Source: a virus. Taken from it: DNA of 64,000 nt. The DNA lies in the IMG/VR virus record IMGVR_UViG_3300000117_000009, positions 1-64,000 of that record, one strand, 5' to 3'. Made by a program: the position numbers and the translations under genes. The notes under the pieces were generated by a model that was not told where the DNA came from, made no database searches, and saw only the letters and a program-made list of their open reading frames with translations. Shown piece after piece: positions 22,261-64,000 of this stretch (position 1 is its first letter; each line of letters opens with the position of its first letter).

Positions 22261-23904
22261 ATGCAAGACATATATCAAAAAGTAATCGAAAAGCTTTTAC
22301 ATGAGTTTAGTTCTATGGGCGGAGGTGCTGTTGGAGGTGTTTCTACTCCTCTTGGCACAGGACCACAAGCTGGTGTAGGTAAAAAAAGCGTGTATAAAAA
22401 GTCTACGGCAACGGATAAAAAACATAGGTCAAAAGGCAAAAAGAAAAAGACAAGAGTAAAGTCAGTCCAGTGGTATCTTAAGCGTGGCGGGGAAAAAGGT
22501 AGAAAAAGATCTTTAAAAGAAAGCTTTAATTTTCTTTTTGAAGCTAGGACACCTCAGCTAGAAAATATTTCTAAAGATCAACTTTTAGCTTTTATAGAAC
22601 ATATGTTAGGTAATGCTGTCGAAGGCTACCAAATAAGTATGACAGAAAAGTTTAGTGGTCAGCACGTTTCAGTTTTAGTAGGTCCAGAGCTTTACAAAAA
22701 AGACAAGAAAACAAATAAAATTATAAATACAGGTCCACAAGTTTTTATTGCGACAAAAAAATCTTTTGACAAAGCAAAGTCTGATAGATTAGAGAAAGGT
22801 TTATCAGTATCCAATGTTGATATTATGAAAACAAAATATAGTGACATCCTTACATACGATGAGTTTAAAACATCTAAATATCGAAGACATGCAGGATATA
22901 ACTGGTATCTATTTTTAAACAGATCAGGCGCTTCTCGTAGCATTTATAATGCATTTAAATATTCTTATCCACACAAAATGCCAAAAGGAACTTACAAATA
23001 TTTTGGAGTTGAATCACTCAAGTCAGATGATAGAAAAGGTGACTATATATCGTACAGCATACCTGGCAGAAAAGAATACGCTGTCGTATATTCAGGAGAC
23101 TTTACTGAGACTGATGCTGTAGCAATGACAAATCCAAAATATAATATTTACTTTATGGGCCCAGAACAAGCTGTAAGACTACCAGAAATTACTCAAGAAT
23201 TTATTGATACACTTTCGACTTTAAAGCAACAAATTCAAGATCATTCGTCTGGTTCATTTAAGAAATTTGTTACAGAAAATATAAAACCACAGTTGACTGA
23301 ATTAATTATGACTTCTTTAAGCGGATCTTTAATTGCACCTAATTCTCCTTTTGAAGGTCTTTTTGTTTCCATTAAAGATCAAACAGGATTTAAAATACCT
23401 AATCCGTCTTATGGTGATTTACAAAGAATTCAAGCACCATTTGCTGCAGCATTTGAGTATAAATCAGTTGATCTTAGATCAGCATCACAAAGTTTACTTG
23501 AAGTTGCTGAAGCAATTAAAATGCAAGATATAACTTTAACTACTAGTGATCAAATAAAAAAGAATTCTACAGGTTACAATATCTTAAATTATGCAGTTAC
23601 ACTTGGTAATATATCATTAAGGTCTGGTTTAAGAGTTTTCTTTACACCTGAAAGCTTTCAGTCATTTACTAACGACATAGTAAGTTTAATAAACAATCCA
23701 AATAAAGGTCTGGCTAGTAAAATTATAAAAACAATGGCATCTTCAGTTCAACGCAATTTTAGCTGGCATGTTGTTAAGTCTGACGACAATTATAACAACC
23801 CAGATATTACAACTATAACGCAAGCTTTTGATGACTTATGTTCTAAGATAGATGTATTAAAAATATATAAAAAACAAAAAGCAAAAGAAGAAATAGAGTT
23901 ATAA
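22261..23904 (+). CDS. Hypothetical protein, probable ATP-dependent ligase/nucleotidyltransferase fold with N-terminal leader
   Basis: MTEKFSG (motif I KxDG variant), FEGLFV (motif IV), GFKI (motif V), in the expected order. Confidence 0.45.
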   Translation: MQDIYQKVIEKLLHEFSSMGGGAVGGVSTPLGTGPQAGVGKKSVYKKSTATDKKHRSKGKKKKTRVKSVQWYLKRGGEKGRKRSLKESFNFLFEARTPQLENISKDQLLAFIEHMLGNAVEGYQISMTEKFSGQHVSVLVGPELYKKDKKTNKIINTGPQVFIATKKSFDKAKSDRLEKGLSVSNVDIMKTKYSDILTYDEFKTSKYRRHAGYNWYLFLNRSGASRSIYNAFKYSYPHKMPKGTYKYFGVESLKSDDRKGDYISYSIPGRKEYAVVYSGDFTETDAVAMTNPKYNIYFMGPEQAVRLPEITQEFIDTLSTLKQQIQDHSSGSFKKFVTENIKPQLTELIMTSLSGSLIAPNSPFEGLFVSIKDQTGFKIPNPSYGDLQRIQAPFAAAFEYKSVDLRSASQSLLEVAEAIKMQDITLTTSDQIKKNSTGYNILNYAVTLGNISLRSGLRVFFTPESFQSFTNDIVSLINNPNKGLASKIIKTMASSVQRNFSWHVVKSDDNYNNPDITTITQAFDDLCSKIDVLKIYKKQKAKEEIEL

Positions 23905-23924
23905 AAATAAAAAATAAATTTGAT

Positions 23925-23953
23925 GTGTAAAAATTAAAAACATATAATATAAT
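23925..23953 (+). promoter_or_regulatory. Early/middle promoter GTGTAAA-N16-TATAAT upstream of ssb-recA operon
   Basis: Same motif and spacing recur at 35500 and 37278, and with N17 at 49580 and 50615. Confidence 0.75.
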
Positions 23954-24042
23954 GGTATCACAATTGGTGATCAAAACAAATTAAAAAAATAACAAATAAC
24001 CAATTAAACATTTAAATAAATACTATGAAAGGTATTAAACAT

Positions 24043-24828
24043 ATGGCTATTGATATGAACGCTATTCGTAAGAAGCTTGGACAACTAAGTGGTCAAAATT
24101 CAAAGAAAAATACAATGTGGCGACCTGAAGAAGGTTCTGAAACAACTGTTCGCTTGCTTGCGTATCCAAACAATGACGGACAGCCTTTTAAGGAACTAAT
24201 GTTTTATTATAACATTGGCAACAACCCGGGTCTTCTTGCACCATACCAGTTTACTAAACCAGACCCTATTCAAGAACTTATTACAAAGTTACGTGATGAA
24301 GGCACTAAAGAATCTTATGAACTAGCAAAGAAGCTCTATCCAAAAATGAGATGTTATGCTCCTGTTATCGTTAGAGGTGAGGAAGAAAAAGGTGTAAGAC
24401 TTTGGGCTTTTGGAAAAACTGTATACCAGACATTACTAAACTATATGCTTGACGAAGACTATGGTGACATTACAGACCCTATTGAAGGACGTGATGTTAG
24501 AATAAGCTGTTCGAAAAATCCAGGACAACAGTGGGCAACAACAGATGTTAGGCCTCGTGGTAAAGACTCACCTCTTTCAGAAGATGCAGATCAAAGCAAG
24601 AAATGGCTTGATAATATTCCTGATGTTAATGATCTTTTTGAGTTAAAGACGTATGAAGAACTTGAAAGCATTGTTAATAACTGGCTCAATGAAGACGAAG
24701 ACGACAGTAAGATAGAAACAACCCGAGGTGGATTTAATAATAACATCAAGACAGATGATTCTCCAGATGCAATCAATGGCAAATACAAGAGTCTTGACGA
24801 TGCGTTCGCTGATTTGGATTCTCTATAA
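24043..24828 (+). CDS. Single-stranded DNA-binding protein (gp32-like)
   Basis: WRPEEG, VRLLAY, GVRLWAFGKTVYQ, DYGDITDPIEGRD, acidic tail ending DDAFADLDSL. RBS GAAAGGT before ATG 24043. Confidence 0.85.
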   Translation: MAIDMNAIRKKLGQLSGQNSKKNTMWRPEEGSETTVRLLAYPNNDGQPFKELMFYYNIGNNPGLLAPYQFTKPDPIQELITKLRDEGTKESYELAKKLYPKMRCYAPVIVRGEEEKGVRLWAFGKTVYQTLLNYMLDEDYGDITDPIEGRDVRISCSKNPGQQWATTDVRPRGKDSPLSEDADQSKKWLDNIPDVNDLFELKTYEELESIVNNWLNEDEDDSKIETTRGGFNNNIKTDDSPDAINGKYKSLDDAFADLDSL

Positions 24829-24843
24829 AGAAAGCGTGTATAA

Positions 24844-32515: not shown

Positions 32516-33118
32516 ATGAATTTTTTAACTGAGGTTTCTCCACTGATTAAAACTCTAGAGCTCAAGCAAGAACCTGTTATTATCACTATAAATAACTTTG
32601 ACGAAGAATCAGCTTCTGCTTTTTCTGAAGCTGTTAGCATTGCACATAATACAGGACAAAAAGTTATTCCTGTTATTATTGACTCTTACGGCGGTCAAGC
32701 TTACTCTTTACTCTCGATGATTTCAACTATTAAGTCTTCAACGATTCCTGTTGCAACGATCATTAGAGGTAAAGCTATGTCTTGTGGATCAATCTTAGCA
32801 TGTTTTGGTGACGACGGCCTTAGATTTATGGATAAAGACGCAACACTTATGATTCACGATGTTGCATCAACAGCTTTTGGAAAAGTTGAAGAGCTTAAAG
32901 CAGATGCAAGAGAAGCTGATCGACTTAATAAAAAAGTCTATAAAATGATGGCAAGAAATTGCGGCAAAGCAGATGACTACTTTTTAAATCTTATTCACGA
33001 TAAAGGTCACGCAGATTGGTTTTTAGATGCTGAAGAAGCAAAAGAACATAATTTGGTACAACATTTAAGAGTACCCAATCTAAAAGGAAAAGTTACAGTT
33101 ACAATCGATTTAGAATAA
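32516..33118 (+). CDS. clpP: ClpP-family protease subunit
   Basis: IDSYGG, GKAMSCGS (catalytic Ser), LMIHD, DWFLDAEEA. Confidence 0.88.
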   Translation: MNFLTEVSPLIKTLELKQEPVIITINNFDEESASAFSEAVSIAHNTGQKVIPVIIDSYGGQAYSLLSMISTIKSSTIPVATIIRGKAMSCGSILACFGDDGLRFMDKDATLMIHDVASTAFGKVEELKADAREADRLNKKVYKMMARNCGKADDYFLNLIHDKGHADWFLDAEEAKEHNLVQHLRVPNLKGKVTVTIDLE

Positions 33119-33150: not shown

Positions 33151-33630
33151 ATGACAGATCGTCTATTAAAAAAATACATTAAAAATCACATTTACTTTCA
33201 CAATAAATCAAAAAACTTATTTGAGACATTCTTTCGCAGACATAATAACTTAAACAACAGAAGTCTAATGGAAATTAGTGAAAAAACAATTTCTCAAGAC
33301 TTCCAAATCGCGAAAGAATTTATCAGTAAAGCTGTAAAAACAGAGAAGTCAGCTTTTTATTGTTTAAACTTATTAATAGAAAATCTTTCTTCCTATACAG
33401 CGTACTTAGAAATTCCTAGCAAATCATCAAATAACAACATAGAATTTGCTCTTAAAAAAAGCTTTTCAAACAAAGGAGAAGAAGAACTAACTGATGATAA
33501 TGTAAGATCTTTTATTACATTTACTCTTCAATGCCTTGAACTTCTTTTAAAGACTAAGCCAAGTATTACATCTGATTATAAGTCCCGAGAAGAAAAAATT
33601 ATTAAAAAAATAAAGCAAGAAAATACATGA
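33151..33630 (+). CDS. Hypothetical protein with LLKKYIK leader
   Basis: 159-aa ORF. Leader shared with 44560..46743. ATATTTA at 33118. Confidence 0.6.
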   Translation: MTDRLLKKYIKNHIYFHNKSKNLFETFFRRHNNLNNRSLMEISEKTISQDFQIAKEFISKAVKTEKSAFYCLNLLIENLSSYTAYLEIPSKSSNNNIEFALKKSFSNKGEEELTDDNVRSFITFTLQCLELLLKTKPSITSDYKSREEKIIKKIKQENT

Positions 33631-33682: not shown

Positions 33683-34654
33683 TTGAAAAATAAATTAGAA
33701 AATTATATATACGAGCAGATTTTGATACTAGAGCAACGCCAGCTTATTAATGAAAATAAAGTATTAAAAGGACTAACTGCAGCCGGCCTATCAGCTGCAA
33801 TTTATTTTGCAACTATTTTTTTACAGAATAATGATGTCATACCAGATGAAGTTGCAGACAAAGCTGAGCAAAGCGCAACTTTGACACAAAGTCAATTAGA
33901 TCAAATTCAAAAAGGTGCTGAAGAAGCCCAGCGATTAATAGATCAAGGTACTGATCCTAAAAACATAATTATACATCAAAAAGAACCTGGTGTAGCCATA
34001 GCTTTTAAAACTTTGTTTATGAATTCTGATCAACCAACAGACGCTGAACTAGAAAACTTAGCGCCCGGCGAAAAAATACCTATTGCAAGTGTAGAAGAAG
34101 TTACGCAAGAACACATAGAACATGTGTTCAAGTATACACCAGAACAAATAAAAGAATATTTGAATACAGAGTCTGCAAGAGATGCTTTAACTATAGACTT
34201 CGGTGAAGAAGAAATTTGTCTTTTAGATATCGGTCAAAGTGAATTATCAGAAATAATGAATAATCCAAACAGTAAAGCTTTTAAGCATGTCTCAAAAGAA
34301 GTTCTTTCTAGAAGAATACAAGCCCGCGATGCAACATGGGATGCAATTGAAGCTTTTAGTGAAGACTATGAAAATACTTGGGATCAAAACGAAGCTGTCA
34401 AAAATATTAAGAGCGGATCAAGAGATAGCATTGGTGTAGGTAAAGCAATTGAAGCTTATATGAAAAATAAAAATGCAGATGCTTATCTCGATATTGTTAT
34501 TGATGCGTTTAACAACGGTAAAGTTCAAGATCAAAGTCAAGTTGACCAGTTTATTGATAATACAGACTTAGATGACTTTTCTAGTGAAGATTCTGAAGAC
34601 GATCGTGATATTTATAGAGACACAGAAGAAGTAATAGACTTTTTGGCAAACTAA
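33683..34654 (+). CDS. Hypothetical acidic protein with leader and one hydrophobic helix
   Basis: LENYI...ILE...LINE followed by GLTAAGLSAAIYFATIFL. RBS GAGG, TTG start. Confidence 0.6.
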   Translation: MKNKLENYIYEQILILEQRQLINENKVLKGLTAAGLSAAIYFATIFLQNNDVIPDEVADKAEQSATLTQSQLDQIQKGAEEAQRLIDQGTDPKNIIIHQKEPGVAIAFKTLFMNSDQPTDAELENLAPGEKIPIASVEEVTQEHIEHVFKYTPEQIKEYLNTESARDALTIDFGEEEICLLDIGQSELSEIMNNPNSKAFKHVSKEVLSRRIQARDATWDAIEAFSEDYENTWDQNEAVKNIKSGSRDSIGVGKAIEAYMKNKNADAYLDIVIDAFNNGKVQDQSQVDQFIDNTDLDDFSSEDSEDDRDIYRDTEEVIDFLAN

Positions 34655-36297: not shown

Positions 36298-36660
36298 ATG
36301 AAAACAAAAATTCTCTTAGAAAGACATAATGATTTAGTTAATACTCTTATAAGATGTCGTATAAAAATTGAAGATCGAGAAGATCCAACCGTCTTAGATA
36401 TAATGACAGATATGAGAGCATTACCAGGAGTTGTAACTGTTAGACAGACAAGACCCATATCAGACACGGTTACGTCTTACGGACACAGACTAATAGAGCT
36501 TAATGTGTCTTATATTCCTGCTTTTATTGAAGATAGTGATCCTTTTATGACAATGATCAGATCTTTAAAAAAAGTTGAAGGTATTGATATGATTAAGGTA
36601 ATGGAACACGACGAACAATCAATTAATGTAAAAATACAGAAAACACCACTAATTATTTGA
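36298..36660 (+). CDS. Hypothetical protein (possible ACT/ferredoxin-like fold) with ILLE leader
   Basis: 120 aa; two helix-GV-strand units (MRALPGVVTV, LKKVEGIDMI). RBS AGGAG. Confidence 0.55.
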   Translation: MKTKILLERHNDLVNTLIRCRIKIEDREDPTVLDIMTDMRALPGVVTVRQTRPISDTVTSYGHRLIELNVSYIPAFIEDSDPFMTMIRSLKKVEGIDMIKVMEHDEQSINVKIQKTPLII

Positions 36661-46789: not shown

Positions 46790-49555
46790 TTAAGAAAGCA
46801 TTAAAGAAATGTATTTTTTAATTAGCGATTCATTTGATTCTTGCGGAGATTGAGGGTTTTGTTTTTGTTGAAGTAATTGTCTAGTATCACTAATTAATTT
46901 AAGCATAGATCCTTTACTGAACATTTTTTCTATATAATCTATTACAATTTCAATACCTTCTTCGGGTAAATATAAATTGGCGTCAGGTGCAAGTGTTACT
47001 GCATAATTGACGCTTTGATGTATTCCCTTAACAATTTTAAGAACTTGCATCTGACTCATCCCACTAAAAAACAATGATAGCTGACTAGAATTATTTGCAA
47101 CCTGTTCAAATAATTCGTTGTCACCTTCTGTATAATGTATTCTACCTAGATCTAAACTATTCATGTGAGATTCTGGTATTGTTTTTAGCAGAGCAATAGT
47201 CTCAAGATATTGTTCTACACCTTTCGTAGATCTTAACAAAAGCATTAAAAGATCATTAAAATGTTTTTTGTTGTTTGGCTTAATATCAATATAGCTAAAA
47301 CAAGCTTTACATAAAGAGATGAGAGACTGGAATGGTATCTTTATGTCATAACTAATCCGTCTTAAATACATATGGAGATTGCTAATATCTGGAGGAATAT
47401 CACCTGAAATTATTCCTGAAACCAATGCTTCAGCGTACTCTTTATTTTTTGTATCAATTTTTCTATTGTTTTTTAGTATTAATCGAGTTTCTGCAGGTGT
47501 CTGAGATTGTTTGAGTTCATCAATTAAAGGACTCCAGTTGTTTGCGACTTCAAACCTTTGATTAACAAACTGATGATATTTTTGGTTTGTAATTTGACTT
47601 TTAATGTTTTCATCGTTAATGTTTAATAAATTTTGTTCAACATTCTTTCTAGCTTTTGCGCCTAATCTATCGATGTCTTCAAAAATTATATCAATTATTT
47701 TATTTAAAAGATCAATTCTAACACTACTTATTGTTTGCGGCTGAAATAAGGAAAAAACACCGCGAGACATATTATCAATAGAACCAGCAATTTGTGCTGA
47801 AGAAATCGTATCAAGCTCTTTAAACAGAAACTGCTGAATTTCAGGTAATTCTGTAAAGTATTCTCTTTCCCAAGGAAGCATGCAAATAGTTGTTTTATAG
47901 TCTCTGTTTTTTGTTGGAAAGTAAAAAGAAAGCATTTTTACTAAAACATTGAGTATATCTTGGCCAGTAAGATTATCTAAGCGACTTCGATACCTTGCTA
48001 ATTGAGAAATTTGAGTTAATCCTACATTCATCATTAAGCGGTTATTGTCAAGCCTGTTTAGCTTATCTAGAGACTTTCTAGAAAATAACATATCATTTAC
48101 AGATGAGCTGCCGCTATATTGTATGTTACCAAAAACCAGCATGCCATAACTGACTTTGTCTGCGTTTTCTATGTAAATATCAACAAACTTTTCAAAGTCT
48201 TCTTTTGTTACACTTTGTTTGTTTATTGGAGAAGTTAGTATATCCAAAAATTTTGGAAAATAATAATTGACGTCATTGTCTGCAAAATAGTTTATTTTTT
48301 TGCAAAGTTCTGTTATTAAGTCTAAACATTCTAAGTGAATATTTTCTATATTACTCTTGTCAACCCTTAAAGCAAACATTGGATTGCCAGATGCACCAAC
48401 AGCTTTATTTATTTTGTTTTTTGTATTTGAAAACAAAACGTGGTTGATAAACATATTTTCTATTTGTAAGTTATCATTAACAACTAGATCATAGACCTTC
48501 TGTACAGTTTCGTATGTTAAATCAGCAGAATCAGCAACTTTATTGATTTCATTACACCAATAAAGTGTAGGTAAAAGTCCTTCTACTTTTTGAAGTTGAT
48601 CTTGCTTGAAGTCTTCTTCGTCAACATCGTTTTCTTGTGCAATATCGTTTAATGTTTCAAAGTCTATGTCTAATGCTAACTTTTGGTCTGGAAAAAAGCT
48701 TGCAATATTTGAATGCCATTCTACATCTTTGCCTACGACTCTTCCTAGTTCTACGACTTTTGCTTTTCTCTGCGGATTGTAAACAACACAAACCGGTCCA
48801 TCATGGTCACCTCTAAATATGATACCGTCTATAACAGAAGTTAAATATTTGTGTGTATAATTCCCCATGACATATCTAGTAAAATCAAAAGCAGAACCAG
48901 AAGTTAGTTGTTTATTGCTAGGATCATCGACTAAATAACTAGTCCCAGATATTCGTTGTGTCAATGAAGTGCAATGTTGTTTTAAGTCTTCTTTTGTTTT
49001 TGCAAACAATTCGTCTTTTACAAGAGAAGAAAACTTTTCATCAAACAACTTTTCTATCTGGTCTTCTATTTTCCATTTATCACCGTGAATTTGTTTAGCC
49101 AGATCTTCAAAAAATATAATATAGTTGCTGATGTCAACTTCAAATTTAAAACATATATCCCCATACAAATGAACAATAGAAGGGTTAAAGTCATAACATG
49201 TATATAATCCTGGGCCGTACATATCTCCGTGACCAGGTGTAAACCCAGTTCCCACTGTATATGGGTCTGATAGTAGTTCTGTAATTCCTTGAAGCTCTAT
49301 GTCACTTTTACTTTGCGTGGTTGTACCACTCCTGGCTTTGTCGTAAGTAACTCTATTGATAATGTTTCTAGCACGATCTTTGACTTTTCTTGGTTTACTA
49401 GGCTTAAAGGGCTTTTCTGTATCTTTTACATAAGATGAATAATCTTTAAACTTTTTTGAACCTGTTAAGTGATAAACTGAAAGTTTGTTTCCTTTTAGTT
49501 CTATTCCTTTATTTTCTTTAATGAGAAAATTTTCTTTTAAACTATACTTCGCCAT
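46790..49555 (-). CDS. Large protein with PARP-like (H-Y-x) ADP-ribosyltransferase domain
   Basis: VYHLT, GFTPGHGDMYGPGLYT, YGDICFKFEV, DGIIF...DGPVCVVYN. Start ATG 49555 with RBS AAGG. Confidence 0.7.
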   Translation of the reverse strand: MAKYSLKENFLIKENKGIELKGNKLSVYHLTGSKKFKDYSSYVKDTEKPFKPSKPRKVKDRARNIINRVTYDKARSGTTTQSKSDIELQGITELLSDPYTVGTGFTPGHGDMYGPGLYTCYDFNPSIVHLYGDICFKFEVDISNYIIFFEDLAKQIHGDKWKIEDQIEKLFDEKFSSLVKDELFAKTKEDLKQHCTSLTQRISGTSYLVDDPSNKQLTSGSAFDFTRYVMGNYTHKYLTSVIDGIIFRGDHDGPVCVVYNPQRKAKVVELGRVVGKDVEWHSNIASFFPDQKLALDIDFETLNDIAQENDVDEEDFKQDQLQKVEGLLPTLYWCNEINKVADSADLTYETVQKVYDLVVNDNLQIENMFINHVLFSNTKNKINKAVGASGNPMFALRVDKSNIENIHLECLDLITELCKKINYFADNDVNYYFPKFLDILTSPINKQSVTKEDFEKFVDIYIENADKVSYGMLVFGNIQYSGSSSVNDMLFSRKSLDKLNRLDNNRLMMNVGLTQISQLARYRSRLDNLTGQDILNVLVKMLSFYFPTKNRDYKTTICMLPWEREYFTELPEIQQFLFKELDTISSAQIAGSIDNMSRGVFSLFQPQTISSVRIDLLNKIIDIIFEDIDRLGAKARKNVEQNLLNINDENIKSQITNQKYHQFVNQRFEVANNWSPLIDELKQSQTPAETRLILKNNRKIDTKNKEYAEALVSGIISGDIPPDISNLHMYLRRISYDIKIPFQSLISLCKACFSYIDIKPNNKKHFNDLLMLLLRSTKGVEQYLETIALLKTIPESHMNSLDLGRIHYTEGDNELFEQVANNSSQLSLFFSGMSQMQVLKIVKGIHQSVNYAVTLAPDANLYLPEEGIEIVIDYIEKMFSKGSMLKLISDTRQLLQQKQNPQSPQESNESLIKKYISLMLS

Positions 49556-49576: not shown

Positions 49577-49642
49577 TATGTGTAAATATAAATATAATGT
49601 TGATATAATAAATAAAAACAAGAAAGGTATATAATTTGTCTA
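49577..49642 (+). repeat. 66-bp direct repeat, copy 1 (duplicate of dnaE promoter/RBS/start)
   Basis: 64/66 identical to 50612-50677. Confidence 0.95.
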
Positions 49643-49683: not shown

Positions 49684-50589
49684 TTACACTATTCCTAATG
49701 TAATTGTTTTATTTTTGCTTAAAATCTTTTTTGTCAAGATATTACAAATATGTTTGTTGATTTGCTTTATTAGTGTTACAAGACTTTCAATATTAATAAA
49801 AGTCTCTTCTTTTAAGTAGTATGGATATTCATCTTTGGTTATAAAGTCTGCTAAATTAAAATTTTGTAAATCAATTTTTAATTTTTCAATATTCTGGTTT
49901 GATTTTTCAATATCGAAGACCTTGGTTTTTTCATCAAACTCTATAATAAAAAGATATAAAAACGCAAAAAGAGAAGGCTCGCTATCTTCAAAATCAAAAT
50001 AGTGTGGGTAATCTTTTGAAGAAAGAGCTTGCATTATAAATTCATGAAATAAATAAATATCGTTTTGTTCAAATTTAGTCTGTATGTTAAATTGTATTTC
50101 TTCTTCTAAATATACATGATATAGGTCGTGTATTGACCATATTGTATTACCAACGTGATCTTTGTTTATTTTTGATGATACATCTCCGAATTCTGGTACA
50201 ATAACAATATCTACTTCTGAAGATAATACAATCTGATTGTATTTTTTACTGTCAATAAGATCTACATCATTTAACGCGTTAGCAACTTTAGCTCTATTTT
50301 CTTTGTTGTTTTGTAAAACTATCTTTAAATTGTTGTTTTTATTTTTGTTTATACTTTTCATTATGTCTTTAAATAACGTGTTTTCTTTGTTACTTTTAGT
50401 TATAACATACGTAATAGGAAAGATAACGGGTCTTCTATCTCTCAGAGAATTAAAATCTACTCTTTTAGATTTGATATGTTTGCTAATTTTTTCACTAGGC
50501 AATCCTCTTTCTAAGATTGCTTTTTTAATAAAGTTTTGTTTCCACTCGATTAATAACTCTTTAAATTCTCTTCTACGCAACTTGCTCAT
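49684..50589 (-). CDS. Hypothetical protein, possible zincin-like HDxxH motif
   Basis: WSIHDLYH; leader LLIE/ILE; ATG 50589 with RBS AAAGGA. Lies between the two 66-bp repeats. Confidence 0.55.
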   Translation of the reverse strand: MSKLRRREFKELLIEWKQNFIKKAILERGLPSEKISKHIKSKRVDFNSLRDRRPVIFPITYVITKSNKENTLFKDIMKSINKNKNNNLKIVLQNNKENRAKVANALNDVDLIDSKKYNQIVLSSEVDIVIVPEFGDVSSKINKDHVGNTIWSIHDLYHVYLEEEIQFNIQTKFEQNDIYLFHEFIMQALSSKDYPHYFDFEDSEPSLFAFLYLFIIEFDEKTKVFDIEKSNQNIEKLKIDLQNFNLADFITKDEYPYYLKEETFINIESLVTLIKQINKHICNILTKKILSKNKTITLGIV

Positions 50590-50611
50590 TTGCAATCCTT
50601 TGTAATATTAA

Positions 50612-50677
50612 TATGTGTAAATATAAATATAATATTGTTATAATAAATAAAAACAAGAAAGGTATATAATTTGTCTA
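50612..50677 (+). repeat. 66-bp direct repeat, copy 2 (dnaE promoter GTGTAAA-N17-TATAAT, RBS GAAAGGT, TTG start)
   Basis: 64/66 identical to 49577-49642. Confidence 0.95.
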
Positions 50678-54246: not shown

Positions 54247-54258
54247 ACGTATTAGATG

Positions 54259-54570
54259 CTAGAATGACATCATTTCTATAGGTGTTACTCCAAGCTTTAA
54301 TAGCTTTTCTTTATACATCGATTTAAATTTTAATTTCATCTCATGTCTTAGTTTATTGTCGTTTATTTCGTCTGCTTTTTGCATATTCAACCTGTACATT
54401 GCTAGTAAAGTTTCTTTATCTGCAGTTTCACTATTATTAGGTCCAGGCCCTAAAGCTTGAATAGGATCTGAACCCATGTGTCCATGACCACCTGACAGGT
54501 CGTCGCTATAGTGAGATTCTTTTATAGCACTTCTAATGATTGAGCGTAAACGTCTTTCTGTGATTTTCAT
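54259..54570 (-). CDS. Small protein with KITERRLRSIIRSAIKE leader (candidate internal head protein)
   Basis: 103 aa. RBS region TTTTAGGAGAAAACAAA is identical to that of the tail tube gene. Confidence 0.65.
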   Translation of the reverse strand: MKITERRLRSIIRSAIKESHYSDDLSGGHGHMGSDPIQALGPGPNNSETADKETLLAMYRLNMQKADEINDNKLRHEMKLKFKSMYKEKLLKLGVTPIEMMSF

Positions 54571-54652
54571 ATTTGTTTTCTCCTAAAATATGTTTTTAAA
54601 TATGATAAAATTTTATATTTTTATTTATAATATAAAATAAAAAAGGTTTTAA

Positions 54653-55543: not shown

Positions 55544-55552
55544 AGAATTTTT

Positions 55553-56125: not shown

Positions 56126-57015
56126 AAAAAATTAATGTACCAATTATTCCGAAAGATTTAGGCACAAGGTTCAAGTCGTCAGATATCTGGTTTGTTTGTC
56201 AAACAAACAAATTTGTAAAATCAATTAGACCGCCAAAGTATTCTAGCTTATATAACGGTAAAGCTCATCAAAGATTTGAAGAAGCTTATAGAAAGCATAT
56301 TAAAAATTATCCTGACAATATGTCATTTGTAAAAGCAAGCCTCTTTAATGCGACTAACATTGTAACGCCTAAGCAGATCTTGTTAAATCAAGGTTACACT
56401 TACTATTTTAAACTTTTACCTGAGCAAATCGAAAAATGCCTATTTTCAGTCACTATAGATGGTGAAAATGCTTTAGTAAAAGGTATTCAGGGTTTTGCAG
56501 GAGTATATAAGGTATGGAATGAGAGAAAAGACACATGTACTGAAGTAACATCTTATAGTGACAAGCCAAGTGATAATATTGAAGTTATTATTCCATTTAA
56601 AGTTAAACCTCAATATTACATACCAGAAGTCAAAAAAAGGACTTTTTATCACGGAAGTTTACAAAGATTTAGTTCTTTAAACAAGTTTTCTTACGTAACA
56701 CCTTACAAAGAAGACGCGATTAAATTTGCAATACCTTGGTCATCAGACGAGTTGCTTATAAAAGACAGAGAAATGTCAGATTTAGGTCGGCCGCCTAAGT
56801 GCCTTTACTTTAAAAGAGATATAGAAATAGAAGATAGTAAAGTTTATTTATACGCTATAAAAGGTATTGACACAATTAGCTCTGGAACAAATACAGGAAA
56901 AATCTTTCCTTGGAATAGAATAACATTAAAAGAAGCGTCTGAAGAAGATAAAAGTCTTAAACTTGAAAAGAAGATTATGTCTTGGAAAAAAGTGTTATCA
57001 GCTATTAACATTTAA
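56122..57015 (+). CDS. Two-domain protein with C-terminal ADP-ribosyltransferase-like (Arr-type) domain
   Basis: TFYHGS...L...YVTPYKEDAIKFA...VYLYAI. Confidence 0.5.
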   Translation: MKKINVPIIPKDLGTRFKSSDIWFVCQTNKFVKSIRPPKYSSLYNGKAHQRFEEAYRKHIKNYPDNMSFVKASLFNATNIVTPKQILLNQGYTYYFKLLPEQIEKCLFSVTIDGENALVKGIQGFAGVYKVWNERKDTCTEVTSYSDKPSDNIEVIIPFKVKPQYYIPEVKKRTFYHGSLQRFSSLNKFSYVTPYKEDAIKFAIPWSSDELLIKDREMSDLGRPPKCLYFKRDIEIEDSKVYLYAIKGIDTISSGTNTGKIFPWNRITLKEASEEDKSLKLEKKIMSWKKVLSAINI

Positions 57016-57469
57016 CAGGCGTATATTCTATATTACTGTCATGTTTTTTTAGATCAATTCTAACTTGCTCTAACGTATCTTCCCTGTCATCCCAAAACTT
57101 AACGTAAGTTATATTATCATTTGCACATATTTCATCTAATATTACATGAGACTTATAAATTGGTGCTCTTTCTTTTCTGTAAGCAGACTTAAAGTAACAT
57201 TGATCAAAATCGTTTAAAGACATATTGTTTTGATTTAAAAGCTCTTCTGTTGACATTATATATTCAGATTTATTTGTTCTTGCTGTGCAAAGTATTACTC
57301 TTGTTTGAGAATTACCTAGAGAGTTTTGAAGTTCAGCAACAATATTTTCTATCCAATCTTCTTTTTTATGATCGTATAACGTCATATCAAAGTCATAAAT
57401 ATGTAATGTATTTATTGGTTCTTTTTTTATAATATACTTTATGTAGTTTTCCAGTAGTAAATTAGACAT
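57005..57469 (-). CDS. HAD-superfamily phosphatase (PNKP / RNA-repair-type)
   Basis: IYDFDMTL (DxD), LCTAR, YKS, FWDDR. ATG 57469 with RBS GAGG; LLENYIK leader. Confidence 0.78.
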   Translation of the reverse strand: MSNLLLENYIKYIIKKEPINTLHIYDFDMTLYDHKKEDWIENIVAELQNSLGNSQTRVILCTARTNKSEYIMSTEELLNQNNMSLNDFDQCYFKSAYRKERAPIYKSHVILDEICANDNITYVKFWDDREDTLEQVRIDLKKHDSNIEYTPVKC

Positions 57470-57488
57470 AAAACCTCGGAGTAATTTA

Positions 57489-57933: not shown

Positions 57934-60900
57934 ATGCAACATAGTTTATCAAAAATGCTTTTTGAAGATCAAGATCCTGCAAAAGATCTTATGGTTGATA
58001 TTACTAAAGCACGTGCCGTTTTAAAAGAAAATCGTCATATATTAAAAGAAAACTACGATTATTCAGATGAAGAAATTAATTGTCTAATTGAATCAGGAAG
58101 GCTTGATGAGATTGTGCCTCTTTTGGCTGCAATTCCTGGCGCGTTAGCTACTGCAGGTAGAGTAGCAGGTGCTGCTGCAAACACTGGTATTAAAATTGCA
58201 GCCAATGCAGCAAAATCAACAGCACAAGCTGCAGCTACTGGTGTTAGAATTGCTGCTCAAACTACAGTAAAAGCTGCTAAAGAAGTAGGAAAGCAGGCAG
58301 GCAAAACAATTATAAAAAAAGGTAAAAATATGGCGGTTGATGCAGCATCTAATTTAAAAGATAAAATCTCTTCTGAAGAAGAAGAAGAAGAATCAACTAG
58401 TGAGGCTATAGAAGAAGCGTTAAAAACTTTTAGTTTAAAAGGTGTAAATATTTTAAATGAAGAAAATATTTCTTCTTCTGCAAGTCAAGGTGACAAAGAA
58501 GGTGATCAAAAAGATGCTGAAGAAGGTGATCAAAAAGATGCTGAAGAAACAAAAAAGTCTGACGAAGAGAAAAAGTCTGACGAAGAGAAAAAGTCTGACG
58601 AAGAGAAAAAAGTTGGTGATACATTAGACATTAGCGATTTAATAGCAGAAAAATCCATTTCACATGCAAATATAATTAAAATAGCTAAAAGATCATTGGA
58701 AAATATTAAAAATCAACAAAACATTGTTAATATGAGAAAAGAATTTTCTCGTTATGATATTGAAAATCTAAGTGAAGAGGAAACAGAAAAACTTAAAGAA
58801 TATATTGAAAAGCTACAAGACGATCATCCAGAAGGAATGATAGATAGATCAAACTTTAAAAGCTTTTTAACTAAGCCACACCCTCAACCTGTTATTGGAA
58901 AAGCCATTATTAATCCTTTACAAATGAGATCAGGAGCAGATCAAAAAATAGCAGTTGATCCAGCAGATATTAAATTTTATCAAAAAAATAAAATTATACC
59001 TTTCATGATTAATTATCAAACGCAAGAGGGTCTGCAGACATTATCAGGACACTCACAAAAAAATGATTATGTTGTTGTTTTTATTGCACCAGCATTTGGT
59101 GCTTTATTAAATGAAAAAGATGTAGAAACATATAAAGCTTTTTTCCCAAACTATTCAGCTGAAGTTAATTTAGGTGAAGGACATGTAGTAATAGACTGTG
59201 ATGAAATTGCTTTTATGTATGTTGATCCAGTAAAAGAATTGCCAAAGCTTCAAACTTCTTTTATGTCTAAAGCACAAGAAATATTAAATAGAACTGAGAC
59301 TAGGAAAAGTGATGGTAAACCTAGTGAACAAGCCGTTAGTCAAGAAACACAAGATTCTTCTAGCGGAAAAACAAACGAAAGTATTTATAACAAGTTTATC
59401 TATCAAGGTGGAATATCACAGCTTTTAAATGAAAAAAATTCTTCGCTAGATGTTTTAAAATTTGTAAACGTAGCTAAGAACGAAAAGCCTCAGGATTTTG
59501 ATGAAGCAAGCTATCAATCTAGCTGGGAAAATTCAATGCTTGCCGAAAAATCAATTAATGTTATAAGAGACAGTTATTCTTCTTATTTACAAGTTCAAAA
59601 AGAAGAATACGAAGAAAAACAAGATAAAGACTCTCAAGAAAAAGCTGGTATGATTGGTAACTTTATACAAGCAGGCGGGAATATAACAAAAGGTTCAACA
59701 CAAGCATTTGGTTTATATGCTACAATTGGTAGCATTCCAGGTATTGGCGCTATAGGTGCAGGTGCTGCAGGTACAGCAGCACTGACTATGCTGCCTTATG
59801 TTATAGGTCTTTCTGTAGCAATGCCTGCCTTAACTAAAGGTGCATCTCTAGGTGCAAAAGCTTACACTTCATTTACATCAAGAAAAAGAGAAAAAGAGTT
59901 AAACAAATCAGAGCTAGATGATCAAATAAAAATAGTTCTTAAGCAACAAACGCAAGACGTTGGTTTCAACAGTATAGGGGACGAAGTTCAGAAGCTTGAT
60001 ACAGTTTTTAGTAGTATAAAACAAAAATTTACTAATGAAAAATATTACGCTGAAGATGGAAAAGGCGTTGACTCTGACTCTGAAGACTATCATAAGATCT
60101 CGACACGAGACTTTATGAAAGTATGTAACAAAAAACAATTATCATTTACTGAAATTAGCGACTTTTCAGGGTCAGAAAAAAAACAATCGGTGTTTACTGA
60201 CTTTTTAATTGGTTGTAACAAAGCTTTAAATGTAATTGATATTGAAATTGACGAAGTTGCAGGTATGGAAATTCAGACAAAAACAGGTAAAGATAATTTA
60301 TTGCAACGCGAAATTGATTTTGATAACAAACCTATTTTGAAAGAAGTAGTTGAGACAATGATGAAAGAGGTTGAAAAATTTCCAGCAGTTACTTTTAGAG
60401 ATCGAATGATGAAATCAGGTATTATTGCTAGACTTAAGTTAGGCGAGCTAGAGGCAGCTCAAAAAATGATAGAAGATCTTCAATCGTCTAGGTGGTCTGC
60501 AAGGTCCGAAAAGGTTTTAAAACCAAAAGAAAACGAAACAGAAGAAGAAGTATTGTCAGATATGTCTGAATTTTTAAATATACCAAAAGAAAATATTGCA
60601 AACGAATTTGAGTCTTCAAGAATAATGCCTATTACAAGCAGTATGATTGAAGCAATAATTGCTCTTCAAAGTGTTGTTTATAAAAATATGCGTTTAAGCC
60701 TTTCCAAACCCTTAGACGAACAAAATTTTAAAATTGATCAAGATATAAAGATTGTTGACTCCATTGAAAAAGAAAAGCAAAATACAGTTATGTGGAATGG
60801 TGCTGAAAAAATTGCATATATGATTTTACCTAAAAATGATTTTGAAATTCCTAAAGGTTTGAATCTCAAAGGTGATAACGCTCAATCGTTTCAAGATTTA

Positions 60901-61179
60901 TATTACGTAATGCTGCATAATGTAATCATATGTACTTTTTCTGATGGTGATCCAGATGAATTTGAAACTGTTTTAAATTTTATCATCAATGACATTGATG
61001 ATAAAACAAATTTAAAAGCAATGGAAGCATTTGTTATGAACAATTATAAAACATTAATGACTGCAGCAGCAAACGTTAAGAGTAAACTTAAAATTGAAAA
61101 TAAAGAAGTTTTTTATAAAAATAGTCTAGCAAGACTTTTGTTTGAAATGTCATGCAGTGAACTAAACTTTAATAATTAA
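57934..61179 (+). CDS. Large hypothetical protein with repeated [LI]xE sites and Gly/Ala-rich hydrophobic segments (candidate ejection protein)
   Basis: 1081 aa; LFE, LKE, LIE, LDE, LNE sites; IVPLLAAIPGALATAG and IPGIGAIGAGAAGTAALTMLPYVIGL segments. Confidence 0.55.
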   Translation: MQHSLSKMLFEDQDPAKDLMVDITKARAVLKENRHILKENYDYSDEEINCLIESGRLDEIVPLLAAIPGALATAGRVAGAAANTGIKIAANAAKSTAQAAATGVRIAAQTTVKAAKEVGKQAGKTIIKKGKNMAVDAASNLKDKISSEEEEEESTSEAIEEALKTFSLKGVNILNEENISSSASQGDKEGDQKDAEEGDQKDAEETKKSDEEKKSDEEKKSDEEKKVGDTLDISDLIAEKSISHANIIKIAKRSLENIKNQQNIVNMRKEFSRYDIENLSEEETEKLKEYIEKLQDDHPEGMIDRSNFKSFLTKPHPQPVIGKAIINPLQMRSGADQKIAVDPADIKFYQKNKIIPFMINYQTQEGLQTLSGHSQKNDYVVVFIAPAFGALLNEKDVETYKAFFPNYSAEVNLGEGHVVIDCDEIAFMYVDPVKELPKLQTSFMSKAQEILNRTETRKSDGKPSEQAVSQETQDSSSGKTNESIYNKFIYQGGISQLLNEKNSSLDVLKFVNVAKNEKPQDFDEASYQSSWENSMLAEKSINVIRDSYSSYLQVQKEEYEEKQDKDSQEKAGMIGNFIQAGGNITKGSTQAFGLYATIGSIPGIGAIGAGAAGTAALTMLPYVIGLSVAMPALTKGASLGAKAYTSFTSRKREKELNKSELDDQIKIVLKQQTQDVGFNSIGDEVQKLDTVFSSIKQKFTNEKYYAEDGKGVDSDSEDYHKISTRDFMKVCNKKQLSFTEISDFSGSEKKQSVFTDFLIGCNKALNVIDIEIDEVAGMEIQTKTGKDNLLQREIDFDNKPILKEVVETMMKEVEKFPAVTFRDRMMKSGIIARLKLGELEAAQKMIEDLQSSRWSARSEKVLKPKENETEEEVLSDMSEFLNIPKENIANEFESSRIMPITSSMIEAIIALQSVVYKNMRLSLSKPLDEQNFKIDQDIKIVDSIEKEKQNTVMWNGAEKIAYMILPKNDFEIPKGLNLKGDNAQSFQDLYYVMLHNVIICTFSDGDPDEFETVLNFIINDIDDKTNLKAMEAFVMNNYKTLMTAAANVKSKLKIENKEVFYKNSLARLLFEMSCSELNFNN
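58501..58605 (+). repeat. Coding tandem repeats: 24 bp x2 (GDQKDAEE) and 18 bp x3 (KKSDEE)
   Basis: GGTGATCAAAAAGATGCTGAAGAA at 58501 and 58525; AAAAAGTCTGACGAAGAG at 58552, 58570 and 58588. Confidence 0.95.
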
Positions 61180-61222: not shown

Positions 61223-61771
61223 ATGAAACTTGACAGCAAGTTAATGCTAAAGCTTTTAAAAGAAGAATACGACAAAAGAATAAACTACTATCTTGGTGAA
61301 GTTGAAACTAGAGCTAAACATAGTCAAGAAGACGGTGAATTGGTGCAAAATGCGAGTGGCTTAAAAGTTAAAGATAGAGCAGGAAACGTGTTTGTAATTG
61401 ATAGACTTGAAGAGCCAGAAGGAGGTGAAATATTAGTTTATTTAATTCCTCCAGGTAGAGAAGATTCAAACTTAAAAATACAAACACCTTCAGCGCCTAT
61501 GAATGATGTTAGAGAGGATAATCTAAGCCAAACTTATAGCTCATTAGAAGTTAATGAAAAAGAAGAAAACGAAAAAGAAGGCAAAAGAAAAATCGATGAT
61601 AAAAAGCCCGATCCTATGAAAAGCGGAGAAATAATCAAGCCAAACCCAAAAGCTAAGACTAAAAAAAGCTTTGACATAAAATCAAATGTTGAAAGCATAG
61701 ACTCTTATGAAGAGGTTAACGGGAGAATAGTTATAACATTAAAACAACTAGATAAGGACTTTACACTATGA
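61223..61771 (+). CDS. Hypothetical protein with LLKE leader
   Basis: 182 aa; RBS AGGAG; ATAATTA at 61191. Confidence 0.6.
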   Translation: MKLDSKLMLKLLKEEYDKRINYYLGEVETRAKHSQEDGELVQNASGLKVKDRAGNVFVIDRLEEPEGGEILVYLIPPGREDSNLKIQTPSAPMNDVREDNLSQTYSSLEVNEKEENEKEGKRKIDDKKPDPMKSGEIIKPNPKAKTKKSFDIKSNVESIDSYEEVNGRIVITLKQLDKDFTL

Positions 61772-62484
61772 ATAAACTAGAAGATATAATCAGTAAAGCT
61801 GTGAGTGATACTTTGCAAGAAAAAGGTGTTAACAATCATCATAATAAAAAGATAGAAAACCTTAATGAATCATATGTAACGCAAGTTGGAAGCTTTAATT
61901 TGCAAACTGAACTTCTTTCTTCAAAAACTAAAAAAGCACATCAACAACTTTTAAAAGGCTATGTAGAAACATTAAACAAAATTTCAGCAAGTTTAGACGG
62001 TGTTGACAAGTCTTCAGCAAACTTAAACATGTCTGCTTTTCGATCTCTTAAGATAGATGAAACATACAATCATAATGCTGCTTTTCTTCATGGTTTGTAT
62101 TTTGAAAACATTAGCGACTTAAGCAGTAATATTTCTGTTGACTCTTTGGCTTATATGCGACTTTCAAGAGACTTTGGCAGCTTTGATGCTTGGCAAGAAG
62201 ATTTTGTTGCTTGTTGCTTGTCAGCTAGAAACGGTTGGGCAATAACTGCATATAATACTCATTTGCAAAGATTTGTTAATACAGTTGTTGACTTACATAG
62301 TTTAAATGTAATGACTGGTATTTATCCAGTTATTATTATGGATTGTTGGGAACATAGCTATTATAGAGACTATTTAAAAGATAGAAAATCATATGTTTTT
62401 GGTATGATGAAAGAATTAAACTGGGAAGTAATAGAAAATAGAATTAAAAAAGCTGATGCGATAGCAAAAATAATTAAAGGTTAA
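61768..62484 (+). CDS. Fe/Mn superoxide dismutase-family protein with N-terminal extension
   Basis: AHQQLLKGYVETLN, LHGLYFENI, DFGSFDAW, NGWA, DCWEHSYYRDY; all four metal ligands are present. Confidence 0.88.
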   Translation: MNKLEDIISKAVSDTLQEKGVNNHHNKKIENLNESYVTQVGSFNLQTELLSSKTKKAHQQLLKGYVETLNKISASLDGVDKSSANLNMSAFRSLKIDETYNHNAAFLHGLYFENISDLSSNISVDSLAYMRLSRDFGSFDAWQEDFVACCLSARNGWAITAYNTHLQRFVNTVVDLHSLNVMTGIYPVIIMDCWEHSYYRDYLKDRKSYVFGMMKELNWEVIENRIKKADAIAKIIKG

Positions 62485-62487
62485 AAA

Positions 62488-63315
62488 ATGAAGAAGTCAT
62501 ATAGTAATAAAGTAACGCAAGGACTTAGAAAAAATAAAATTAATTTATCAATTTTATTCGAAGAAGATGACAAAGACGAAAAAAAAGGTGATGACACAGG
62601 TGATCTTTTTAGTGACGACAGCTTTAAAGATGATGAAAACAAAGAAGATAGTGCTGATGATGTCTCTAAAGATGATGCTGATCCTAAAGAAAAGCCTGAA
62701 GGTGATGAAAAAGATCCAGAGCAGGATACTGCAGAGCTGGATGAAGAAAATTTAAACAATCTTAGCGATCAAGTTTCTTATATGAAAAACTTTTTTGAAA
62801 AAATAAAAAAAGACGACGGCACGTCTTCAGTTGAAAACTATATTTCTTCAGCAGTTGCTTCAAACATTAATGCATCAGCACTAGCAAAATTAACAGCAAG
62901 TTTTTTACGTAAAGGAAAAAGCATTTCAAGTTTCTTAATGTTTGAAGAAAAAGCAGACAAAGAATTAGAAAAAGTTGAAGCTGAGCTGGATGATATTGAT
63001 CGAGTCCTTACTAAGGGTAGCGAAATTGTTGATAAATTCAAAAAGGGCAAAGATATTGACATACAAGGTTATGTTGACGCTGCTGTTAATGCTTATAAAA
63101 ACTTTGACAGCTTATTTGCAAAAGAATTAATTGTCAAACAAGCAACAATCAATGTTTTAATATTGAATAGTGGCGCAAAAGCTGAAATGAACATTAGAGA
63201 ATTTGAAGAGCTTTTTCATGAGGAGTTACATAAGCAATTCAATATTGAATACGAAGAGCATGCTTTAATAACACAAAAAAATGACACAGCTGCAGGAGCC
63301 AAGTCACAATCTTAA
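62488..63315 (+). CDS. Acidic hypothetical protein with ILFE sites
   Basis: 275 aa, D/E-rich tract after NLSILFE. Confidence 0.6.
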   Translation: MKKSYSNKVTQGLRKNKINLSILFEEDDKDEKKGDDTGDLFSDDSFKDDENKEDSADDVSKDDADPKEKPEGDEKDPEQDTAELDEENLNNLSDQVSYMKNFFEKIKKDDGTSSVENYISSAVASNINASALAKLTASFLRKGKSISSFLMFEEKADKELEKVEAELDDIDRVLTKGSEIVDKFKKGKDIDIQGYVDAAVNAYKNFDSLFAKELIVKQATINVLILNSGAKAEMNIREFEELFHEELHKQFNIEYEEHALITQKNDTAAGAKSQS

Positions 63316-63330
63316 TTTAGAAACTATTTT

Positions 63331-63627
63331 ATGAGAAAAAACAATAAACAAGTAAATAAAATTGTCAACAATAAAACTGTCCATGTCGAGCTACCTGGGC
63401 AAGTTCATAAAAAACTCAGAGCACTATTATTTTTAAATGAGTTGTCAATGCAGAAATTTTTTACTTTAATGGCAGAAAAATATGTTTTAAACGACAATTA
63501 TTTACATGATTTAGTCAATAAAAGAGTTGATGAAATCAAAGAAAATAATTTAAATAAACTTAGAAATATAGACGAGAAAGACTTGTATGATGCTATTGAA
63601 GAAAATTCTCCCTTTAAAAGCAATTAA
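63331..63627 (+). CDS. Possible ribbon-helix-helix DNA-binding protein
   Basis: KTVHVELPGQVHKKLRALL...SMQKFF strand-helix-helix pattern. Confidence 0.5.
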   Translation: MRKNNKQVNKIVNNKTVHVELPGQVHKKLRALLFLNELSMQKFFTLMAEKYVLNDNYLHDLVNKRVDEIKENNLNKLRNIDEKDLYDAIEENSPFKSN

Positions 63628-63874
63628 AAAAATAATAAATCAAAATATTGTTTTTAAAGACCAGATTGATAAACTTGAAGATGATCAAGTAAGAAGCAAT
63701 GTAGAAATTATTAATTTAAAAGAAAAAATTTTACTTCTTGAAAATCATAACAAACATGTTGTTGCAGATACTTTAATACTAGCACAAAATTTAGCAACAA
63801 TATATTCAGTACTTAACGAGCATAATGAAATCATAAAAGACACTGAAATAGTAAAAAAGATAACATATCACTAG
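63587..63874 (+). CDS. Hypothetical coiled-coil protein
   Basis: 95-aa ORF with a heptad pattern. Confidence 0.5.
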   Translation: MMLLKKILPLKAIKKIINQNIVFKDQIDKLEDDQVRSNVEIINLKEKILLLENHNKHVVADTLILAQNLATIYSVLNEHNEIIKDTEIVKKITYH

Positions 63875-63922
63875 CTTAATTGCATTCAATATAATATTTA
63901 TAAATAAAACGTAGGCGCAATT

Positions 63923-64000
63923 ATGAAATTAGTTAAAAAAGACGATCTTAGAAGATTAGCAAAGTATTCTTTGTTTGAAAACAATATTAATGAATTAAGA
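63923..64000 (+). CDS. Hypothetical protein, 3'-truncated (MKLVKKDDLRRLAKYSLFENNINELR...)
   Basis: Open to the window end; preceded by ATATTTA (63894); carries the shared leader. Confidence 0.6.
   Translation, partial: MKLVKKDDLRRLAKYSLFENNINELR

Follow-up and report, generated by a model that had tools for sequence, protein, structure and literature searches.

What does it mean if many otherwise unrelated proteins of a marine giant phage begin with the same kind of short amphipathic leader? This question is raised by the 64-kb window analysed here, which comprises the first 64 kb of the 107,300-base IMG/VR contig IMGVR_UViG_3300000117_000009 (G000). A first-pass annotation of the window, made from the sequence alone, had proposed that 14 unrelated proteins share an N-terminal leader with an [LI]-x-E motif and that this leader directs them into the phage head. 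All 14 quoted N-termini were found where they had been placed, and each of the five minus-strand genes from 44560 to 57520 bears a leader. In phage T4, the capsid targeting sequence (CTS) is the textbook means to pre-load the head with proteins whose action precedes all phage gene expression, such as the anti-restriction internal proteins and the ADP-ribosyltransferase (ART) Alt. We consider it likely that the leaders described here are T4-type capsid-targeting propeptides and thus represent an expanded, divergent version of the T4 CTS.

The contig (GC content ~32%, estimated completeness 42%) belongs to a myovirus. Its first 20 kb encode the tail sheath, which is truncated by the contig end, the tail tube and baseplate proteins, while genes for a gp32-like protein, RecA/UvsX, a 5'-3' exonuclease, a DnaB-type helicase, dUTPase, ribonucleotide reductase (RNR), ThyX, thymidine kinase, dCMP deaminase and DnaE follow after the tail genes. 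For comparison we used the relatives G001 (complete, 239,550 bases with terminal repeats), G002, G003 (50% GC) and L004. The sheath identity to relatives amounts to 37-65%, with G003 reaching just 37%. The capsid protein of relatives is of the Gp23 type, and among named phages it comes closest to distant T4-type ones like Rhodothermus RM378 and XacN1. The phage collection contains no cultured close relative, and tblastn searches with 46790 and 54259 found no match among cultured phages.

Within the first 20 residues, [LI]-x-E is found in 46 of the 107 contig genes, while 22.9 would be expected from internal windows (binomial P = 4e-7). Its density is highest at residues 5-15, at about three times the background. 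Since 21% of internal 20-residue windows contain one such motif by chance, the bare rule is too weak on its own. The signal proper lies in an extended amphipathic leader that keeps a constant distance from Met1. If the best ungapped 8-mer is scored for all pairs of N-termini, 22 pairs reach at least 28, compared to 2-8 in internal-window or shuffled controls (4-8 for N-termini shuffled with their composition kept), and the top-scoring pairs expose a consensus longer than [LI]-x-E. Class A reads L-L-[EK]-x-[YF]-I-[KR]-E plus a run of three hydrophobic residues with a closing Glu, and starts at residues 2-6. Class B reads M-K-I-T-E-x-x-L-R-x-I-I-R-x-x-I-x-E and starts at residue 8 in 17 of 17 N-terminal cases from four genomes. 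Shorter forms, h-h-x-E (h, hydrophobic), are present as well, and the terminal h-x-E of the leaders falls at residues 7-25.

The leader is specific for N-termini. A 7-residue class A pattern (h-h-charged-polar-Y/F/W-I/V/L-K/R...) matches ten times in G000, six of them N-terminal (0.37 expected), and 23 times in G001, ten of them N-terminal (1.07 expected). A matrix trained solely on G001 leaders identified, at 10 bits or more, 12 N-terminal genes of G000 and one internal site in 32,720 residues. Taken together, approximately 22 of the 107 contig genes bear a credible leader. The early enzymes, which the first-pass annotation had named as the group to compare with, point in the same direction: ten Pfam-confirmed replication, nucleotide-metabolism and lysis enzymes lack a leader, and their domains begin within the first 40 residues, in seven cases within the first 20. 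The additional C-terminal tag copies it had reported, in contrast, are at chance level (3 found, 3.4 expected).

Some candidates and one method were rejected. A ZOOPS (zero or one occurrence per sequence) expectation-maximisation motif search on the N-termini labelled 73-102 of the 107 genes and was discarded as overfitted. A loose automatic leader rule has a false-positive rate of 8%, and among the genes it labelled in evident error are those for the DNA ligase, the small subunit of RNR and a dehydrogenase-like enzyme, as well as 76120. The latter (contig 76120-77967; L001 13120-14967) is among the 12 matrix matches; its leader-like beginning is probably due to a mis-called start codon, because the G001 orthologue starts with a lipoprotein signal peptide.

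The leader is conserved at the protein level, as it is encoded by differing synonymous codons and persists in G003 despite a GC content of 50%, where the same class B leaders are found on at least five families. Altogether, 18 families with at least two members retain the leader in at least 60% of their members. It is common to proteins with unrelated mature parts, and a body-only all-against-all BLAST revealed just a few paralogue pairs. If only non-homologous pairs are considered, G002 comprises 23 strong N-terminal pairs compared to 7-8 in controls. The unbiased pairwise test was noisy for G003 (16 strong pairs, 2-13 in controls), and the case for this genome is based on the class B register pattern. 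Homologous bodies bear different leader classes across genomes or paralogues (families 231, 109, 41 and 42). Thus, the leader is modular and is swapped among bodies. The family of 22261 illustrates the conservation best. Among its 80 homologues, with identities down to 29%, 76 kept the leader, and the first 60 residues are far better conserved than the body. In its 59 distinct N-termini, position P3 is always L, V, I or M, P2 is N, S, R, Q, K, E or H, and a Gly-rich linker follows. A hydrophobic P3, a free P2 and Glu at P1 form the conservation pattern of a protease site, while the invariance of the P1 Glu among the 76 is partly by construction, since the alignment was anchored on this residue. 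A separate observation concerns six dispersed paralogues of G003 with 400-520 residues (18251, 19531, 46499, 69174, 100575 and 86412): their first 30 residues are near-identical (M-K-I-V-L-G-T-L-R-R-L-I-R-E-V-L-L-L-E-D-R...) and their bodies divergent.

A connection to the phage head is provided by the relatives. All five large relatives encode a Peptidase_S77 of the T4 gp21 family (E = 3e-14 to 4e-30, above the Pfam cut-off; 99.9 bits in G001), which carries I-T-E-9 as its self-cleavage motif. The N-terminus of the G001 protease reads M-G-A-Q-R-L-I-T-E, compared to M-N-E-P-Q-L-L-I-E in T4 gp21, whose LIE-9 site fits the gp21 cleavage logo and for which the loss of the first nine residues has been linked to activation (PMC9026906, PMC9958956). 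The head module of G001 begins with terminase, portal, a 277-residue protein, the protease and small proteins of 132, 138 and 96 residues, and continues with proteins of 193 and 285 residues, an acidic scaffold-like protein of 513 residues and the Gp23-type capsid protein. In the relatives, this capsid protein contains 3-5 h-x-E sites in its first 65 residues, while 0.6-0.7 per 65 residues occur elsewhere; three of these propeptide sites are conserved out to G003, and T4 gp23 has the same layout. Compared to shuffles of their own composition, [LI]-x-E is enriched in the 277-residue protein (13 versus 5.9, P = 0.002), in the 138-residue protein (6 versus 1.4) and in the scaffold-like protein of G002 (24 versus 11.7), while no excess was found in their portal, terminase and sheath. 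T4 gp22, gp21 and gp68, which served as positive control, show the same excess as the core proteins of the relatives. The 138-residue protein next to the protease, kept from G001 to G003, and several other small genes in and around the head module begin with leaders of the same type. In G001, G002 and G003, one motif marks the N-terminus of the protease, the propeptide of the capsid protein and the proteins of scaffold and core. Besides, the 285-residue head protein of G001 (119929-120786; L099/L100) comprises an internal class A motif at residue 150 (D-L-K-D-Y-I-K-E-V-I-L-S-E, 17.5 bits), which may represent an internal processing site.

Based on these results, the following scenario can be envisioned. 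The leader would form an amphipathic helix of 10-25 residues at a fixed distance from Met1, ending in at least one hydrophobic-x-Glu site. During head assembly this helix would dock the tagged protein on the prohead scaffolding core. A prohead protease of the gp21 family (Peptidase_S77), expected in the part of the genome absent from the contig, would then cut after the Glu, and the mature protein would be retained in the head of the virion and exit with the DNA at infection. The earlier claim of a T4-like packaging tag, cleaved by a prohead protease and carried by many unrelated proteins, thus stands in part: the S77 protease, the head substrates and the N-terminal specificity fit, while the C-terminal tags and the proposed unit of promoter and tag do not.

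Several points weigh against this scenario. First, neither head genes nor a Peptidase_S77 protease were found on the 107-kb contig, which is 42% complete, and the overlapping contig L007 (100% identical, adding 10 kb upstream) ends before any head genes. The link to the head therefore rests on relatives whose sheaths are 37-65% identical. Second, packaging and cleavage are what we infer from sequence in a group without a cultured member in the phage collection. Third, the consensus is unlike the T4 leaders, which score negative with the matrix of this clade, and 33151 carries Asn at the class A Glu position. Fourth, a ClpP-family protease is encoded next to two tagged genes, and this enzyme might take the place of the S77 protease. 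Fifth, HAD phosphatase, superoxide dismutase (SOD)-like and nucleotidyltransferase-like enzymes have, to our knowledge, not been reported by anyone as head cargo. Finally, whether leaders are linked to a late-promoter-like motif varies with the choice of the leader set. Contig-wide, TATTTA[TA] precedes 10 of 22 hand-curated leader genes and 9 of 85 others (P = 6e-4), and no association was found with the looser automatic leader set. Within the original set, an upstream promoter motif had been attributed to 12 of the 14 genes, while the strict form TATTTA[TA] is found upstream of eight. As it also precedes tail genes on G000 and both head and tail genes in G001, this motif may be a late promoter.

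Alternatively, the leader might be a docking helix for another common partner, such as the ClpP-family protease, for which it would serve as timed degradation or processing tag, a chaperonin or another assembly hub. The gene for the ClpP-family protease (32516-33118) is located among nucleotide-metabolism genes, directly before the tagged genes 33151 and 33683. In G001 a similarly tagged gene of 287 aa adjoins a ClpP-like gene as well, and a body comparison gave no link between its product and 33683. The contig also encodes a GroEL-like protein, a reading made by eye without family comparison, and ordinary-looking enzymes are among the tagged proteins. However, hydrophobic-x-Glu is the documented specificity of gp21-type proteases, the motif recurs in the capsid propeptide, scaffold and S77 N-terminus of the relatives, the same leaders occur on head-module proteins, and ClpP is found here without an unfoldase partner. 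We thus regard another partner as unlikely, although it is the strongest of the alternatives. The ClpP-family protease itself may be a second head protease or processing enzyme, or be unrelated to the leaders.

That the leaders have no common function at all, and merely reflect paralogy and the Lys-, Leu-, Ile- and Glu-rich starting helices of AT-rich genomes, is very improbable. While the frequency of the bare motif, the paralogy of some tagged proteins and a certain enrichment of Leu and Lys at the N-termini could be explained that way, this idea is largely refuted by the controls: shuffled N-termini give 4-8 strong pairs compared to 22, a single internal match stands against 12 N-terminal ones, the register from Met1 is fixed, the motif occurs in the 50% GC genome of G003, and the non-homologous pairs of G002 exceed their controls by 23 to 7-8. 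Slightly less probable still is an amphipathic helix that binds the inner membrane, be it as site of prohead assembly or in a lysis or envelope role. The leaders are indeed amphipathic, 33683 has a hydrophobic segment directly after its leader, and T4 proheads assemble on the membrane (PMC9958956). Yet the very basic small proteins and soluble enzymes are no obvious membrane proteins, membrane binding does not account for a terminal Glu that is invariant while P2 is free, and the amidase, the sole Pfam-confirmed lysis enzyme, lacks a leader. Finally, it is least probable of all that a modifying enzyme recognises the leader, in the manner of systems for ribosomally synthesised and post-translationally modified peptides, since Radical_SAM (PF04055) is absent from G000, G001, G002 and G003 but was matched in 14 of 14 control genomes, and no other candidate maturase co-occurs.

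If capsid targeting is accepted as the likely role of the leaders, the tagged genes of the window (Table 1) become candidates for head cargo. Of the 14 original members, 36298, 57934, 61768 and 62488 are weak and show the short h-h-x-E form only.

Table 1. Leader-bearing genes, the ClpP-family protease gene and the repeated cassette in the analysed window
Feature	Position	Strand	Description
22261	22261..23904	+	547 aa; 15-residue leader ending L-H-E, Gly-rich linker F-S-S-M-G-G-G, then basic stretch; strong member
ClpP-family serine protease	32516..33118	+	Pfam CLP_protease, 83.5 bits; matches PHROG 'head maturation protease' families; also retained in G001 and G002
33151	33151..33630	+	159 aa; M-T-D-R-L-L-K-K-Y-I-K-N, class A; first h-x-E is L-F-E-25; 18.2 bits (G001 matrix)
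33683	33683..34654	+	323 aa, acidic; class A leader with h-x-E at residues 11, 17 and 24; 20.2 bits
36298	36298..36660	+	120 aa; M-K-T-K-I-L-L-E; weak candidate, short h-h-x-E only
44560	44560..46743	-	727 aa; M-K-I-R-L-L-K-K-Y-I-K-E, class A; partial paralogue of 86491
46790	46790..49555	-	921 aa; M-A-K-Y-S-L-K-E-N-F-L-I-K-E; possible ADP-ribosyltransferase
Cassette copy 1	49577..49642		divergent regulatory cassette of 66 nt, located upstream of 46790; shares 97% identity with copy 2
49684	49684..50589	-	301 aa; M-S-K-L-R-R-R-E-F-K-E-L-L-I-E; moderate member; flanked by the 66-nt cassette repeat
Cassette copy 2	50612..50677		between 49684 and the DnaE gene
54259	54259..54570	-	103 aa; class B, M-K-I-T-E-R-R-L-R-S-I-I-R-S-A-I-K-E; 11 bits (G001 matrix)
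57005	57005..57469	-	154 aa, HAD-family phosphatase; 17-residue class A leader before D-F-D-M-T; 19 bits (G001 matrix)
57934	57934..61179	+	1081 aa; M-Q-H-S-L-S-K-M-L-F-E; weak to moderate; first gene of plus-strand cluster
61223	61223..61771	+	182 aa; L-L-K-E-E-Y; moderate; G001 orthologue has I-L-K-E-E-Y at the same position
61768	61768..62484	+	238 aa, Fe/Mn superoxide-dismutase-like with N-terminal extension; weak candidate, low leader score
62488	62488..63315	+	275 aa, acidic; L-S-I-L-F-E-E at residue 25; weak; G001 orthologue has L-S-K-L-I-L-E
63923	63923..64000	+	138-aa protein extending beyond the window to 64339; leader ends S-L-F-E; moderate; TATTTAT 28 nt upstream

Among the plus-strand genes, 33151 has TATTTAT 32 nt upstream, and neither Pfam nor PHROG gave a family match for its product. 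For 33683, TTG serves as start codon, preceded by a good ribosome-binding site. The hydrophobic segment of its product, probably membrane-spanning, recalls the SPN3US ejection protein gp47, the mature form of which begins with a transmembrane segment (PMC5694885). The L-L-E-R-H of 36298 is retained in the G001 and G002 orthologues, as is the entire N-terminus, and thus may be just the first helix of the fold. 57934, with its short leader form, is preceded by TATTTAT at a distance of 34 nt and has no homologue in the three relatives examined. For 61768, Pfam Sod_Fe_C (71 bits) matches residues 131-225, confined to the C-terminal Fe/Mn SOD domain, and the G001 orthologue has I-I-K-E. The N-terminal half of the protein is extended and divergent, and therefore it may not be an active dismutase. 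No family match was obtained for 62488. Next to the G001 orthologue of 64346, the gene 38815 shows D-I-L-F-E at the position that corresponds to the leader of 63923, while the body comparison gave no link.

On the minus strand, the L004 orthologue of 44560 (54% identical) retains the leader. The N-terminal domain of 46790 is common to two paralogues outside the window, which start with M-K-N-S-I-R-W-L-L-T-E; all three proteins have ~930 residues. In a protein atlas this family neighbours ART-PolyVal/RES clusters at 0.92, which is a lead only, and Pfam and PDB profile searches gave no match. An AlphaFold2 model of 46790, built from a 3-sequence alignment, was unusable (predicted local distance difference test score of 33). 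A leader near-identical to that of 49684 is found on the G001 gene 227468 (M-G-K-L-N-R-R-E-F-K-E-L-L-T-E), while comparison of the bodies revealed no homology. The phosphatase 57005 matches Pfam HAD_SAK_1 above the cut-off (28.5 bits), and its G001 orthologue is equipped with a leader as well. Thus, of the functional labels given at first, the HAD phosphatase and the SOD C-terminal domain were confirmed, ART is a lead only and the 'ligase-fold' found no confirmation.

A nucleotidyltransferase-like and an EF-hand protein are also among the tagged proteins. Beyond the window, the contig adds many more members. Their main group is an eight-gene cassette on the minus strand at 85121-94371 (L002 5121-14371), in which each gene has at least a short h-x-E leader and four score with the matrix. 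It comprises the two ~930-residue paralogues, a protein of 591 residues and a number of small proteins that are very basic, with isoelectric points (pI) of 10-11.3, and resembles an internal-protein locus. The products of 85762, 86129, 88263 and 85121 have 73-214 residues and a pI of 10-11.3 in their mature part, like T4 internal proteins.

The first-pass annotation had also considered promoter and leader as one portable module. This view conflicts with the layout of the 66-nt cassette. A gap of 22 nt separates the end of the repeat from the start codons, the leader codons lie outside of it, and the two leaders behind it differ; therefore promoter and tag are not one mobile unit. L004 contains a single cassette copy (1388-1467), upstream of its 44560 orthologue, and lacks 46790 and 49684. 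To us this looks like cassette-mediated gene turnover at the 49684 spot, with gain or loss by recombination between the copies. As a detail of copy 1, its bases 49636-49642 are a repeat of TTGTCTA, the 7 bases with which the DnaE gene begins. A further side observation concerns the tail region, in which three sheath-like proteins are encoded (window 1-2679, window 3300-6626 and L007 4588-7749). The main sheath has ~1,630 residues in full, a sheath-like protein of 1,053 residues is located upstream of it, and the 1,108-residue protein at 3300 shares 27% identity with the sheath across 470 residues.

In a wider sense, we tentatively propose that an uncultured marine clade of T4-related jumbo phages may load at least 20 different proteins per genome into the head by means of interchangeable leader tags. 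This cargo would include a HAD phosphatase, SOD-like and nucleotidyltransferase-like proteins, three possibly ART-like paralogues of ~900 residues and small basic proteins. If this is true, scanning sequences for the tag could directly reveal which effectors are injected by phages that resist cultivation, and about one fifth of the genes in an abundant uncultured marine giant-phage clade would be injected cargo. This would lead directly to new proteins for anti-defence and host takeover and provide new, longer targeting tags for protein delivery by phage capsids.

How does this compare to known systems? In T4, a leader of 10-19 residues sends unrelated proteins to the prohead core and is removed by gp21 (PMC9026906, PMC12373910, PMC9958956). 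Such a CTS, removed by the prohead protease, is found on IPI, IPII, IPIII, Alt and gp24 (PMC9026906, PMC9958956, PMC12373910). The internal proteins, which are small and basic (PMC9026906), have nothing in common except the leader that directs their packaging (PMC12373910, PMC9958956), and the CTS has been suggested as an evolutionary means of getting varied proteins packaged (PMC9026906, PMC12373910, PMC9958956). The leaders described here are likewise the sole shared part of unrelated proteins, short, N-terminal and ending in hydrophobic-x-Glu. The relatives of this phage have a gp21-family protease with the same self-cleavage motif at residue 9, a multi-site gp23-type propeptide and a motif-rich scaffold, the putative cargo includes small, very basic proteins, and a possible ART cargo would parallel Alt. 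In contrast to T4, the leaders follow another, longer consensus (12-18 residues, in two or three classes), and T4 leaders fail to score with it. While roughly 5-10 of about 280 genes are tagged in T4, it is ~22 of 107 on this contig, and HAD phosphatase, SOD-like, nucleotidyltransferase-like and EF-hand proteins are among their products. Furthermore, the tagged genes are dispersed here and often lie on the opposite strand.

In T-even phages, new internal-protein genes at the polymorphic ip loci were recognised via their shared leader (cited in PMC12373910, PMC9026906). Similarly, unrelated bodies stand behind a conserved leader here, the content is hypervariable, as L004 lacks two tagged genes, and repeated cassettes are found at insertion points. 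Unlike at the ip loci, there are several interchangeable leader classes, which also occur on proteins of 500-1000 residues. The mobile regulatory cassettes of T4-type genomes (PMC2839356) are comparable in layout: a 66-nt promoter-like block is duplicated around an inserted gene and occupies the same place in a relative without the insert. The cassette here is without any part of the leader. The phiKZ-like phages SPN3US, phiKZ and 201phi2-1 are comparable as giant myoviruses with many head-internal proteins that are cut after Glu by a diverged gp21 homologue and with paralogues that keep identical N-termini (PMC5694885). Their propeptides mostly comprise 100-130 residues with the motif S/A/G-x-E (PMC5694885), however, whereas the leaders in our clade have 7-25 residues, with L, I, V, M or F at P3 as in T4, and thus do not correspond to this long-propeptide type. 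Taken together, the principle is already established for T4 and not new. The present case differs by its scale and its range of putative cargo, by a consensus that is divergent, longer and split into two or three classes open to exchange, and by its occurrence in an uncultured marine jumbo clade.

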